From Escherichia coli (GTDB lineage: Bacteria; Pseudomonadota; Gammaproteobacteria; Enterobacterales; Enterobacteriaceae): a DNA stretch of 64,000 nt. Positions 1-18,834 of this stretch are shown piece by piece (within the stretch, counting starts at the first letter, position 1; the number at the start of each line of letters is the position of its first letter). The stretch is from NCBI RefSeq assembly GCF_013122565.1, contig NZ_CP053258.1; one strand, given 5' to 3'. The notes below the pieces were generated by a model. It had not been told where the DNA came from, made no database searches, and saw only the letters and a program-made list of their open reading frames with translations. The translations under genes and the position numbers were made by a program.

Positions 1-3000
1 AATGGTGATGCTTTTCGCCACTTCCGGGCTGGTGGTGTCGACCACCACGTTTTGCGTTGCGGTCTGCCCGACATTCCCCGCCAGATCCACCACCCGCACC
101 GTGTAGTTCCAGGTGCCGTCGGTAAGCGTGCGACCATCGGCATAGCTCCAGCTGGTGCCGATAACGGTTAACGTAGTCCAGGTAACACCGCCGTCGAGGC
201 TGATTTGCGCCCGTTCATCTGCCGCCAGCGCCGCGCCGAGCGTGCCACGCACGGTCAGCGTGGTGTCGCGAGTAACGAAATCGCTGCTGCTTAACCCGGT
301 GTCATCGCTGATGCCCGCAATGGCGATGGTTTTGCTCGCCAGCGGCGCGGTGGTGTCCACAGTGACTATCTGGCTGGCGGTGGCGCCGATATTTCCGGCG
401 GTATCGATCACCCGCACCTGGTAGTTGTAGTTGCCGTCGGTCAGCGTCCGCCCGTCAAGATAGCTCCAGGTCAAACCACTTACCGAAAGATTCTGCCAGG
501 TGGTGCCGCCATCAATGCTGATTTGCGCGAACTCACCGGCAGAAAGCGCCGCGCCCAGCGTGCCGCTCACCGCAAGCGTCGTGTCGCTGGTGACAAAATC
601 GTTAGTGATCAGGCCCGTATCGGTAGTGATCGCGCTGATGGCGATGGTTTTCACCGCGGGATCTGGCGCGGTAGTGTCGATCACCACATTCTGGCTGTCG
701 GTCGCGCCAACGTTGCCCGCTGCGTCAATCACCCGCACCTGATAGAGATAGTTACCATCGGTCAGCGTGCGGCTGTCGTTATAGCGCCAGGTCGTGCCGG
801 TAACGGTGAGCGTGGTCCAGGTTACGCCGCCGTCGATACTGATTTGCGCCGTCTCGTTACTGGCAAGCGCGGCGGTGAGCGAGCCGTTGACCACCACCGG
901 GCTGACGCTGGTGATAAAGTCGCTGGCGCTAAGCCCAGTGTCGGCTTGCAGGGAATCGATATTAATACCCATCGCCGGGGCGCTGAGATCGACAGTAATG
1001 GTGTGATTGCTGCTGCCGTTGTTGCCGATAGCGTTGCTCACCGAGGCGTTAATCACGTAGGCGTTGCCGTCCGCCAGCGCGGTGACATCGGCGCTGCCGA
1101 GGGTGTAGCTCCAGCTACCGCCGGTCTGTACCGTGGTGGTGTAGGTTTTACCGTTTAAAGTCAGGGTCAGCGTCTGTCCGACCGGCGCGGTGGTGGTGCC
1201 GCTGATAACCAAAGACGAGCCGTGTTCCGCTGCATTCACCACATCGTCGCCCGCAAAGGTGTTGATGGTGATGGTAGGCACATCGCCGTTCAACGTGACG
1301 CCACGGCTGGCGCTGCCGGGGTTTCCGGCCTGATCGGCGACCGTCGCGCTAATGGTGTAGCTGCCGTCGCTTAATCCGGCAAACTGCTGCGCCGGAATAA
1401 ACACCGACCAGCTTCCGCCGCTGCCGACCGTTGCGGTCCAGGTTTGCCCGTTAAAGGTAACGGTCACCGTCTGGCCCACTTCGGCGGTGGTGGTGCCGCT
1501 GATGGTCTGCCCGGCAAGCTGCTCGGCGTTGTTGATAATATCGTCACCCGCCACCGTGGCGATGGTCACCGTTGGCGCAACGGTATCGACGGTCAGGGCG
1601 TGCGTGGTTTGACCGGGGTTACCGGCGCGATCGTTCACGCTGGCGGTAATGGTCTGCGCACCCTGCCCGAGCGCGGCCAGATCCGCCGCAGGCACGTTCA
1701 GCGCCCAGGTGCCATTGGCGGCAACCGTGGCAGTGTAAGTTTTGCCGCCAAAGGTCACGGTGACCGTCTGCCCTACTTCCGCGCTGGTCGAGCCGTTAAG
1801 GGTTAACGGCTGCTGCTGTTCGGCGGCGTTGAGTCGGTCGTCCGTTGAAACGGTGTTTATGCTGATAATCGGCGCGGTGAGATCCACCGCCACGCTGCGC
1901 GAGGCCGTGGCGCTGTTTCCGGCACTGTCCTGCGCGGAGGCGCTAACCGTATAGCTGGTGCCATCCGCCAGTGCTGCAACGTCCGCCGCAGGCACATTCA
2001 CGCTCCAGCTCCCGTTGCTCTGAATGGTAGCGCTGTAGCCTTTGCCGTTAAGCAATACGGTCACCACTGTACCTGCGGCAAAGTTCGTTCCGGTGCCGCT
2101 CAGGGTCAGCGCACTGCCCGCTTCGGCGGCGTTAATAAGGTTATCGCCGCTGATAGTGCTGACCGAGAGCGACACTGCTGCCGTGTTTACCTGTACGTTG
2201 TGCGTCTGGGTGCTGCTGTTGCCTGCGCTATCGGTGATAGTGGCGCTGATAGTCACTGTGCCGTCTGCAAGGCCGGAAATCACGCTGGCAGGCACGCCGA
2301 CGCTCCAGTTGCCGCTGGCATCGGTGCTGGTGACATACTGCTGCCCGGCGATGGTCACCACCAGGCGGTCGCCCGCGACCGCGCCCGTGGCGGTGCCGCT
2401 GATAATCTGCGCCTGAGTGTGTTCGACGTTGTTAATCACATCATCGCCCGCCACGGTGTTGAAACTGATCACCGGCGCAGTGGTATCAACGGTCACACCT
2501 TTGCTGGCGCTGCCAGGGTTACCCGCCAGATCGCTGACCGTGGCGGTCAGGGTGTAGCCGTTATTAGCAAGTGCGGTTAAGTCGGTGGCGGGCAGCGTTA
2601 AACTCCAGCTGCCGTCCGCCTGCACCGTGGTCTGGTAGTTAGTGCCGTTAAGCGTGACGGTGAGCGTCTGCCCGGTTTGCGCGGTGCTGGTGCCGGACAC
2701 CGTTACGCCCGCCGCCGCTTCGCTGGCGTTGATGATGTTATCGCTGGCAATGGTGTTGATGGTGACCGTTGGCGCGGCGCTATCGACGCTGTATTCGTGC
2801 GTTGCCGTGGCGCTGTTACCGTTGACGTTAGTCACCCGCACCTGGGCGCTGGCATCGCCGTCACGCAGAGCCGCCATATCCGCAGCCGGAACGGTGGTAC
2901 TCCAGCTACCGTTTGCCGCCACCGTGGTGGTGTAGGTTTTACCGCCAAAGGTAATAGTGACGGTTTGCCCCGTTTCGACGCCGGACGTGCTGCCGGAGAG

Positions 3001-17478: not shown

Positions 17479-18834
17479 TTATTTCAAGTCGGGTAAGTCG
17501 TTGTATAAGCCCTGTTTAATTCCCGCTAATGGAATAAGGTTATTCACCGCAGCGGCATAATTTACGGCGGCGACCCAGCCATCATACCTGGCATTTATTT
17601 CAGCCGATTGCGCCTGAAAGACATCTTGCTCGACGGTTAATAGATCATTCAGACTGCGTTTACCCAATTTATATTCATTTTGGTACACATCTCGCGTTTT
17701 GTGGGCACTTTCGGATTGCGCTAAACCGGCTTCTTCACGCCCGCGCGCGCCGGTCCAGTTGGCATATGCCACCGACGCTCGTTGCAGCACATCCAGTTTT
17801 GCCTGTTCGACCTGCGAGGCAGAGATTTTTTGTTGCCCTTCAGCCTGTTGCACCTGGGCAGAAACTGCGCCGCCCTGATACAGCGGCGCGTTAACGTTCA
17901 GTTGTAGCTGATCATCCCAATACGAGCGGTCGCTGGTCTGATAGCGCGTTTTGCCGCCCTGAATACTGAGCGTTGGCCAGTATTGCGCTTTCGTTTTTTC
18001 CACGCCGTACTGTGCTGACTGGCGTAAGTTTTCTGCCGCCAGCACCAGCGGGATGGACTGGTAATCAATATTCTTCAGCGATACCGGCTGCTCGGCTAAT
18101 TCAGCAGGTGGCGCGGCTATCGCCTCCGGCTGTACGCCAGTGAGCACCGCCAGTTGCGCTTTGGCGCTCGCCATCTGCGCCTGATATTGCTCCAGCGTTG
18201 AGCGCATTCCGGCAATACGCGTCTGGGCCTGTAATTCATCCGACGATGAGTTCAGGCCAGCGTTAGCGCGCAATGCCGCCATGTTGTAGACGTTTTCCAG
18301 CGAGTGAATATTGCGTTGAGCCGCATCGCACAAAGCCTGATAACGACTGACTTCCATATAGGCGGTCGCCGTTTTCTCTGCGACATCGGTTAGGGTTGCC
18401 ATCAATTTAAAGCGGTAGCTGTCACGGGCGGCGGTTTGCAGTTTGATATCGTTGTTAGTTTTACCAAAGTCATACACCAGCTGTGTCAGGGTTATGCCAT
18501 ACGAAACGTTGTTATCAAGCCTGCCACTGGAGTCCGTTTGTCGGGACGGCCCCGCGTTGCCGGTTAATCCAACGTGCGGATACCAGGCACTTTTGGCTTC
18601 ATCAATTTGCGCTTCGCCAATACCTATCTGCGCCGCCTGTTGAGTGACGTCGGGATTTCGCGCAAAGGCGCGTAATATACTTTCCTGTAAAGATAATTGG
18701 GCAACTGGCGTTACCGCTGGGGCGTTCGCCCATTGTGGCAGCGGTGCAGCAATTGCAGCTTCTCCCATCACCATAAAACTTATTAAAAAAATAAGTCCAT
18801 TATTTTTACGGTTTTTAAACTGGAATCGCGCCAT
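17479..18834 (-). CDS. TolC-family outer membrane protein (putative T1SS outer-membrane channel)
   Basis: 451-aa ORF. The N-terminus MARFQFKNRKNNGLIFLISFMVMGEAAIAAPLPQ has a charged n-region, a hydrophobic core and an AIA-A cleavage-like site. Composition is TolC-like (Q/A-rich predicted helical segments, glycine/aromatic beta-strand motifs). GGAAGGAAG Shine-Dalgarno ~9 nt upstream of the ATG at 18834. It lies immediately upstream of the giant adhesin gene on the same strand. Confidence 0.8.
   Translation of the reverse strand: MARFQFKNRKNNGLIFLISFMVMGEAAIAAPLPQWANAPAVTPVAQLSLQESILRAFARNPDVTQQAAQIGIGEAQIDEAKSAWYPHVGLTGNAGPSRQTDSSGRLDNNVSYGITLTQLVYDFGKTNNDIKLQTAARDSYRFKLMATLTDVAEKTATAYMEVSRYQALCDAAQRNIHSLENVYNMAALRANAGLNSSSDELQAQTRIAGMRSTLEQYQAQMASAKAQLAVLTGVQPEAIAAPPAELAEQPVSLKNIDYQSIPLVLAAENLRQSAQYGVEKTKAQYWPTLSIQGGKTRYQTSDRSYWDDQLQLNVNAPLYQGGAVSAQVQQAEGQQKISASQVEQAKLDVLQRASVAYANWTGARGREEAGLAQSESAHKTRDVYQNEYKLGKRSLNDLLTVEQDVFQAQSAEINARYDGWVAAVNYAAAVNNLIPLAGIKQGLYNDLPDLK

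Follow-up and report, generated by a model that had tools for sequence, protein, structure and literature searches.

At the left end of the window, as we call the whole stretch of 64,000 nucleotides of Escherichia coli DNA analysed here, lies a giant adhesin gene (siiEA, positions 1 to 17376, minus strand) that is cut by the window edge after its first 5,792 codons. Directly upstream of it, on the same strand, we found a gene encoding an outer-membrane channel of the TolC family (tolC28, 17479 to 18834), followed by an AT-rich regulatory region and by the core genes ybaT (19172 to 20464), glsA (20467 to 21399) and copA (21661 to 24165), as expected from the conserved gene order recognised earlier to the right of about 19.2 kb. 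The present analysis established the identity of these genes, their domain content, the repeat architecture, the position of the locus and its regulatory motif. The first 19.1 kb very likely represent the right-hand part of the OI-28 island (ybaT–cueR), with an operon made of tolC28, siiEA, an LssB-type ABC transporter gene and an HlyD-type adaptor gene, SiiEA being a giant RTX adhesin of the BapA/LapA/MpIBP class. The NCBI annotation pipeline (PGAP) indeed names the giant gene siiEA, for “BapA-related adhesin SiiEA”. The siiEA locus is real and apparently intact in its visible part, but it is already known and not new.

The sequence-only reading had described one uninterrupted minus-strand frame from the ATG at 17376 to the edge, and translation of positions 1 to 17376 gave 5,792 codons with zero stops, the closest upstream in-frame stop being found 11 codons before that ATG. 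The N-terminus of the product scored 500.2 bits against NF047714 (adhesin_SiiEA; cutoff 425), with residues 1 to 234 covering the full model (1 to 229). Moreover, the gene is colinear with siiEA of GPT24-02 over 17,376 nt without indels (94.3% nucleotide and 96.0% amino acid identity), and dN/dS relative to this intact orthologue is 0.12.

By searching the N-terminus against domain models, we could confirm the BapA-like domain proposed before: residues 5 to 132 (16981 to 17364, minus strand) matched Pfam PF22783 (BapA_N; E 1.6e-18) and NF033677 (65.7 bits for a cutoff of 35), and among the NCBIfam families reported at E ≤ 0.001, none other than BapA_N and SiiEA was a match to an N-terminal domain. 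No hydrophobic Sec-type N-terminus was seen, in line with the claimed lack of a Sec signal peptide. Searching for homologues of the first 240 aa yielded only 16 proteins, most of them fragments. AlphaFold2, run on the N-terminal 200 aa with a 10-sequence alignment, predicted a beta-rich BapA_N domain at low confidence (pLDDT 52) and disorder from residue 124, and Foldseek found no match to this model in the PDB below E 0.07. We presume that this domain serves as a periplasmic plug or retention domain. It is followed by a conserved Gly/Ala-rich linker, PWGWLAGAAVGGGALGALLASGGDG (residues 131 to 155; 16912 to 16986, minus strand), which is presumed to thread the TolC-like pore; homologues from Enterobacter, Pluralibacter and Apirhabdus show no variation at W134, A136, G142, G143, G146-L149, G152 and G153. 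We also considered this segment as a transmembrane anchor. Since its Kyte-Doolittle 19-residue maximum is 1.4, below the usual transmembrane threshold, a flexible LapA-like linker spanning the pore is more likely. Likewise, TAAG at residues 97 to 100 was rejected as a conserved LapG cleavage site, because it is replaced in the Enterobacter, Pluralibacter and Apirhabdus homologues and because the orthologous loci, within the limits of the locus itself, contain neither lapD nor lapG.

Most of the remaining protein consists of an extender of 56 tandem Ca2+-type bacterial Ig-like domains of ~100 aa (residues 186 to 5771; 64 to 16821, minus strand), which puts a number on the dozens of such domains reported before. 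First, this count was obtained by segmentation with a self-built HMM, and NF033510 (Ca_tandemer) also recognised 56 stretches on SiiEA, with scores of 2,410 and 2,313 bits. A Pfam search of the giant protein returned BapA_N and Big_13, and a PDB sequence search gave region II of MpAFP/MpIBP (4p99, E 1e-55), 5irb and 6xi3 as the closest solved relatives of the repeats. Second, a higher-order organisation, suspected from the sequence-only reading, could be resolved into a six-domain super-repeat (598 aa, 1,794-1,797 nt) present in about seven copies (domains ~8-50; 1906 to 14772, minus strand): domains six positions apart (lag 6) have a mean identity of 0.67, with a maximum of 0.93, versus 0.43-0.46 at other lags, and the residue autocorrelation of SiiEA peaks at lag 598. 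Tandem Repeats Finder (period ≤ 500, score ≥ 200) reported nothing on siiEA, as the ~300-nt units have drifted too far apart at the nucleotide level; the architecture was defined by the protein-level HMM segmentation. Third, codons ~3991-4170 (4867 to 5406, minus strand) form a tract of recent intragenic gene conversion. Indeed, a 300-nt sample of this tract shares 93.6% identity with the copy that the window itself carries one super-repeat further upstream, but only ~73% with the positional GPT24-02 orthologue, identity across the tract ranging from 0.66 to 0.78. We found no description of the six-domain super-repeat in the literature searched, and the 56-domain count, the super-repeat and the recent gene conversion may all go beyond that literature.

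Colinear orthologues are 6,929 aa long, that is 1,137 codons past the window edge, hence the window lacks about this number of codons. The C-terminus of the orthologues carries Big_13, FG-GAP_3 and HemolysinCabind (E 2e-4) matches and a TIGR03661 secretion signal (33.7 bits, cutoff 17.6). In the orthologous loci, the gene after siiEA encodes an LssB-type ABC transporter (TIGR03375, 837 bits, cutoff 693) whose N-terminus is a Cys-less C39-like domain; it is followed by an HlyD-type adaptor (TIGR01843, 328 bits, cutoff 209) and then by cueR. The orthologous loci comprise only the genes for the outer-membrane protein, the adhesin, the ABC transporter and the adaptor. The earlier interpretation of the locus as a giant adhesin with its type I secretion system is therefore supported by the TIGR01844 outer-membrane protein, the BapA prefix and the Ca2+ repeats in the window, and by the RTX region, TIGR03661 signal, ABC transporter and adaptor in orthologues. 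It is extremely improbable that SiiEA is instead an RTX toxin, that is a pore-forming or cytotoxic exoprotein. Such a function is evoked by the label “RTX family exoprotein” given when EDL933 was first annotated, by the “RTX toxin” wording of PMC12758282 and by the short RTX nonapeptide region and type I secretion signal of the orthologues. However, the Ig-like extender makes up ~90% of the protein, the nearest structures to its repeats are adhesin extenders, and neither a pore-forming hydrophobic domain nor an effector domain with enzymatic function nor a gene for an acylation partner is present in the locus.

The TolC-like gene noticed upstream of the adhesin encodes a 451-aa protein with a Sec signal peptide (…GEAAIA/AP), which scored 417.6 bits against TIGR01844 (type I secretion TolC), above the curated cutoff of 225.15; the gene is intact in the window. 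The spacer between tolC28 and siiEA (102 nt; 17377 to 17478, minus strand) includes an AGGA ribosome-binding site but nothing on the minus strand that resembles a terminator, features that fit a putative co-transcription of both genes, as reported for O157 (PMC12758282). The region upstream of tolC28 (18835 to 19143, minus strand), which had been taken for an AT-rich promoter region, measures 309 nt with a GC content of 30% and is nearly identical to the O157 sequence; its limit towards the core was set by comparison with island-free genomes. It contains an RstA box, TAATTCAAATTACC (19115 to 19128, minus strand; -294 to -280 from the tolC28 ATG), which is the single exact match in the window, where none is expected by chance. 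A box of the same sequence and at the same position was shown by EMSA (PMC12758282). The boundary between accessory and core DNA falls at 19143/19144, inside the intrinsic terminator hairpin of ybaT (19138 to 19160, minus strand), so that this hairpin includes the right-hand end of the island; similarity to island-free genomes begins only at that position. The abrupt change in composition that had been noted left of this terminator is found in siiEA (GC 0.58-0.63) but not in the TolC gene, which is host-like (~0.49-0.52, as in ybaT). Both amino acid content (GC2 of 0.54) and GC3 (0.71) contribute to the jump in siiEA.

Among 5,426 complete genomes of E. coli, 958-1,000 (~18%) have the same locus, with siiEA, TolC and ybaT annotated at the same site, and the whole 19.2 kb align in one piece to annotated siiEA loci with 94.5-94.7% nucleotide identity. 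In every orthologous locus read, ybaT adjoins the island and the TolC-family gene immediately precedes the adhesin gene. A Logan contig of 9.9 kb (SRR11451224), found via the exact TolC protein, is 100% identical to positions 14396-24269 and breaks inside the repeats. In GCA_052983875.1, an identical TolC protein adjoins a 6,929-aa product, but the repeat allele differs from that of the window. An exact 60-mer from the window start had no match among GTDB species representatives. The comparable O157:H7 island, which the sequence-only reading had cited in judging that the locus type was probably not entirely new, is real and corresponds to O-island 28 (tolC28-rtxA28/rtxB28-hlyB28-hlyD28): the chromosomal site, the order of the genes, the regulatory region and the RstA box are common to it and the window, with 97.8% identity over the TolC gene and the junction region. 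The view that the function was probably uncharacterised is out of date, since a study of December 2025 (PMC12758282) ties OI-28 to adherence, gut colonisation and control by RstA and Ca2+; we take both the role in adherence and this control from that O157 paper. OI-28 being a recognised EHEC colonisation factor carried by ~18% of complete E. coli genomes, the window adds no new biology.

OI-28 mutants of both O157:H7 and O145:H28 adhere less to Caco-2 cells and colonise mice more poorly. These phenotypes argue against the view that SiiEA, possibly after release from the cell, works mainly in biofilms or in the matrix between cells, as Salmonella BapA does, and is not primarily an adhesin for host epithelium. 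We nevertheless regard this second role as a possibility, albeit a rather doubtful one: the N-terminal domain belongs to the BapA family, besides pathogens, the carriers of the island include isolates from soil, water, fish and vegetables, and FG-GAP repeats were found but no host-specific binding domain. The literature searched contained no biofilm data on OI-28.

We then compared the locus with other giant adhesins. Salmonella enterica BapA (bapABCD) and SiiEA share a BapA prefix-like N-terminus, a long Ig-like array and dedicated type I secretion genes, a likeness known from the Pfam and NCBIfam domain models, but the SiiEA system has its outer-membrane protein gene upstream of the adhesin and occupies a different chromosomal site. 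BapA is also shorter (~3,800 aa versus ~6,929 aa for SiiEA). Pseudomonas fluorescens LapA (LapEBC, LapD/LapG) shows a layout like that of SiiEA, with an N-terminal region whose role in retention is presumed for SiiEA, a Gly-rich linker, an Ig-like extender and, as in SiiEA orthologues, RTX repeats and a secretion signal. Genes for an LssB/LapB-type ABC transporter (TIGR03375), a TolC-like outer-membrane protein and an HlyD adaptor belong to the LapA system and to the orthologous OI-28 loci alike. Unlike in LapA, the N-terminal domain of SiiEA matches the BapA family model, and its TAAG is restricted to E. coli. The closest solved structures, region II of Marinomonas primoryensis MpIBP and Marinobacter MhLap, are likewise tandem Ig-like domains rigidified by Ca2+. 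However, region II of MpIBP consists of near-identical repeats, whereas neighbouring SiiEA domains are only ~44% identical and organised in six-domain super-repeats, and the distal ligand-binding modules also differ, being FG-GAP repeats in SiiEA orthologues. Finally, Salmonella SiiE (SPI-4), from which the name derives, is also a giant type I-secreted adhesin, with more than 50 Ig-like domains and a link to gut colonisation. Orthology to SiiE was rejected: PDB sequence searches with the SiiEA repeats returned no SiiE chain at E ≤ 1, and the orthologous OI-28 loci contain no siiA- or siiB-like genes. The BapA_N N-terminus, beta-rich in the low-confidence model, is a further difference from SiiE. 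The name SiiEA thus reflects analogy to SiiE, not orthology.

Homology with these systems suggests how SiiEA may be secreted, retained and bound to its ligand. Transcription would start from the AT-rich region upstream of tolC28, which bears the published RstA box. The unfolded chain would be recognised via its C-terminal secretion signal, present in orthologues and outside the window, and threaded C-terminus first through a conduit formed by the ABC transporter, the adaptor and TolC28. Extracellular Ca2+ would then fold the RTX beta-roll and next the extender, whose ~60 Ig-like domains would form a rigid ~0.3-µm fibre; the ligand is probably bound by a distal, propeller-like FG-GAP region. 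As for the BapA prefix domain, it probably adopts its fold ahead of export and blocks the channel like a plug, while the Gly/Ala linker would span the pore, so that the adhesin would stay on the cell.

Then, we looked at the integrity of the locus in 18 sampled relatives. siiEA is disrupted by an internal stop, a frameshift, a truncation or a deletion in nine of them, O157:H7 included; tolC alone is frameshifted in two more, and the locus is fully intact in the remaining seven. These disruptions, together with the complete deletion of the island in K-12-type genomes, raise the question of whether the locus is a decaying, non-functional remnant, broken beyond the window edge either in the rest of siiEA or in the genes for the ABC transporter or the adaptor. 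We consider this unlikely, given that 17.4 kb are open without a stop, tolC28 is intact, dN/dS against the intact orthologue is low (0.12), seven relatives are fully intact and the genome with an identical TolC protein has the full 6,929-aa product. K-12-type genomes retain ~95 nt of the 3' end of the adaptor gene immediately upstream of cueR, a deletion scar which suggests that OI-28 reflects a deletion in K-12 and not an insertion in O157. The disruption counts and this scar may also go beyond the literature searched. A broader proposal, to which we give slightly less than an even chance as a whole, is that the single chain of ~6,929 aa, and not the nonsense-split version of O157:H7, is the original SiiEA and the one that truly functions, that the island is ancestral to E. 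coli and being lost, that the extender evolves by gene conversion between super-repeats, and that the FG-GAP propeller is the ligand-binding head. None of these ideas was found in the literature searched.

The O157:H7 allele itself differs from that of the window. In O157:H7 PV15-279, siiEA carries a TAG at codon 1027, whereas the window has one open frame, and tolC has lost 1 nt at position 51 of the gene (frameshifted according to PGAP), whereas tolC28 is intact here. The O157 siiEA measures 20,460 nt versus 20,778-20,790 nt in intact alleles. We infer from the sequence that the nonsense codon probably yields the two open reading frames described as RtxA28 and RtxB28. The published functional data come from O157:H7, a strain with a nonsense-split adhesin gene and a frameshifted tolC. 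The practical value of the window is to provide an example of an apparently intact siiEA/tolC28 allele. As both genes carry a disrupting mutation in the O157:H7 background used for the experiments, secretion, retention and ligand binding of the full-length adhesin would be better studied in a strain of the present kind.

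By translating the minus strand, we found that the part of siiEA, a giant type I-secreted adhesin gene, lying in the window (1..17376, minus strand) is a single uninterrupted frame of 5,792 codons, as the sequence-only reading had claimed, with none of the in-frame stops that would mark a pseudogene. The frame starts at ATG 17376, 11 codons downstream of an in-frame stop, and the remaining two frames across this stretch are stop-rich. Directly upstream lies a 451-aa TolC-family ORF, tolC28 (17479..18834, minus strand), preceded by 309 nt of 30% GC; ybaT (19172..20464), glsA and copA come next. 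The GC content is 0.58-0.63 along siiEA compared to about 0.49-0.52 in tolC28 and ybaT, a rise due partly to amino-acid content (GC2 0.54, Thr, Ala, Val, Gly and Ser making up about 60% of residues) and partly to GC3 (0.71). The plus strand of 1-17376 carries many ORFs of 80-278 aa opposite siiEA, which look like by-products of GC-rich, stop-poor repeats and show no sign of being genes.

Profile and nucleotide searches supported the reading of this locus as a giant type I-secreted adhesin system. First, the N-terminal 234 residues matched NCBIfam NF047714 (adhesin_SiiEA) with 500.2 bits (cutoff 425) and the BapA prefix model with 65.7 bits, while 56 stretches of the body matched NF033510, "Ca2+-stabilized repeat-containing adhesin". 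In agreement, Pfam placed BapA_N at residues 5-132, followed by Big_13 and Big_6, so that the predicted BapA-like N-terminal domain and dozens of ~100-aa Ig-like domains were recovered. Second, the TolC-like assignment of the upstream gene was confirmed by TIGR01844 (type I secretion TolC; 417.6 bits, cutoff 225). Third, using window 15500-19200 as megablast query, we found matches in 999 genomes out of 5,426 complete ones of E. coli, in single copy and chromosomal every time and annotated as siiEA, a TolC gene and ybaT, and the entire 19.2 kb matches such genomes in one piece at 94.5-94.7% identity. The locus is O-island 28 (OI-28) of EDL933, which bears out the comparable island proposed for EHEC O157:H7 at the same position, and the name siiEA comes from the UMN026 annotation, "adhesin for cattle intestine colonization". 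The window carries an allele of a system that earlier work has described, annotated and studied by experiment; as far as the window extends, this allele appears intact.

The 3' end and the ABC and membrane-fusion genes expected left of the window are present in the orthologous loci of 18KM2445 and GPT24-02, where siiEA (20,790 nt, 6,929 aa) is followed by a 720-aa ABC transporter (TIGR03375 LssB type, 837 bits, cutoff 693), a 391-aa HlyD-family adaptor (TIGR01843) and cueR. The transporter begins with a degenerate C39-like domain that contains no cysteine. The window siiEA is colinear with that of GPT24-02 with zero indels (96.0% aa and 94.3% nt identity, dN/dS 0.12, dS 0.18), and therefore about 1,137 codons lie outside the window. 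In the orthologues this segment encodes about five further Ig-like domains, at least three FG-GAP repeats, and C-terminal RTX nonapeptides with a TIGR03661 type I secretion target domain. A 60-mer from the window start had no match in GTDB representatives. Window 14396-24269 is matched at 100% identity by a Logan contig of SRR11451224, which breaks off within the repeats; in GCA_052983875.1 an identical TolC protein adjoins a 6,929-aa product, the repeats being just 94% identical.

With a self-built HMM, we delimited an extender of 56 domains of 99-102 residues each, spanning SiiEA residues 186 to 5771. Adjacent domains share about 44% identity and domains six apart 67% on average (maximum 93%), hence a six-domain super-repeat of 598 aa, present in about seven copies, makes up the extender; the window's final three domains belong to a distinct subtype. 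One tract (window 4867-5406, minus strand, codons ~3991-4170) has only 0.66-0.78 identity to its positional orthologue in GPT24-02, while over a 300-nt sample it shares 93.6% identity with the copy that lies 1,797 nt (one super-repeat) upstream in siiEA itself, which indicates recent intragenic gene conversion. The solved structures closest to the repeats are 4p99 (E 1e-55), with Ca2+-rigidified RII domains from the Marinomonas ice-binding adhesin, 5irb, and 6xi3 from Marinobacter Lap; no SiiE chain was among the PDB sequence matches at E <= 1.

After BapA_N, a Gly/Ala-rich stretch (residues 131-155) is strongly conserved across Enterobacter, Pluralibacter and Apirhabdus homologues and parallels the poly-glycine linker following the retention module of LapA. 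With a hydropathy of 1.4, this stretch does not reach transmembrane level. Residues 97-100 read TAAG, similar to the LapG site in LapA, but this motif is not conserved in the homologues. For the N-terminus, AlphaFold2 gave a model too weak for a fold test.

The suggestion that the function is probably uncharacterised did not hold. A recent study (PMC12758282, Gut Microbes, December 2025) named z0608 tolC28, z0609 rtxA28, z0615 rtxB28, z0634 hlyB28 and z0635 hlyD28, and reported that the OI-28 deletion and every single-gene mutant showed weaker adherence to Caco-2 cells and poorer colonisation of mice. In that study OI-28 is Ca2+-responsive and directly activated by RstA, with an RstA box, TAATTCAAATTACC, mapped to -294..-280 of tolC28. 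We found one exact occurrence of this box in the window (19115-19128, minus strand), 294 nt from the tolC28 ATG at 18834, and the whole tolC28 regulatory region differs from O157 by few bases.

In O157:H7 PV15-279, siiEA (L001 1406-21865) carries a TAG at codon 1027, so that RtxA28 and RtxB28 look, from the sequence, like halves of one nonsense-split gene; tolC28 (L001 21968-23322) misses one A at nt 51. If a single gene is split, the single-gene phenotypes are hard to interpret and the reported need for each gene is puzzling. Among 18 island-bearing genomes (L001-L019), a non-random sample in which some PGAP flags are possibly assembly errors, OI-28 was fully intact in 7, had a tolC frameshift alone in 2, and had siiEA interrupted, truncated or deleted in 9. 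The siiEA lengths across sampled loci were 18,975, 20,460, 20,778, 20,790 and 21,683 nt, and 161 genomes carry a divergent class of alleles, with ~87% identity at the N-terminus.

What we observed is gene content and motifs only, and the adherence role comes from the O157 study (PMC12758282). By homology, SiiEA would leave the cell unfolded and C-terminus first, through the ABC/adaptor/TolC28 conduit. Extracellular Ca2+ would then fold first the RTX region and next the Ig-like domains, giving a stiff fibre. Scaling from MpIBP (0.6 um) would give roughly 0.3 um for about 61 domains. The FG-GAP region close to the tip would be the likely ligand binder, and the N-terminal domain would plug the channel, holding SiiEA on the cell.

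Comparing the K-12 ybaT-cueR junction, as had been proposed, we found that in all island-free genomes sampled the match begins at window 19144, a junction common to all. The spacer of a K-12 MG1655 derivative (L020 801-898) is made up of the final ~95 nt of the adaptor gene, lacking 1 nt, joined to the ybaT terminator (window 19138-19160). K-12 therefore carries a scar left by deletion of OI-28, so O157 probably retains an ancestral island and did not gain it by insertion. In 18KM2445 and GPT24-02 the adaptor stop overlaps the cueR start by 4 nt (L003 9242-9245; L004 2249-2252), hence in island-bearing strains cueR may share a transcript with the adhesin operon or be translationally coupled to it. 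In both genomes a further accessory segment with adhesin genes adjoins OI-28: between cueR and ybbJ (L003 7107-8126; L004 1-1118) lie genes for YadA-like trimeric autotransporters, together with two small hypothetical genes. In K-12, ybbJ directly adjoins cueR.

The conserved gene order anticipated right of the island was found, ybaT, glsA and copA being followed by ordinary E. coli core from ybaP to acrAB. The Rfam hits above gathering score are all expected core features: sroB sRNA (25216-25299), naRNA4 (30976-31053), the dnaX frameshift element (38976-39040) and SRP RNA (55844-55940). Since this core (19200-40000) reaches at most 98.1% identity to any of the 5,426 complete genomes, the source lineage has no close representative among them. 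O157 and GPT24-02 have the higA-like antitoxin gene ybaQ between copA and ybaP; 18KM2445 and the window lack it, the copA-ybaP gap of the window (24166-24422) being only 257 nt.
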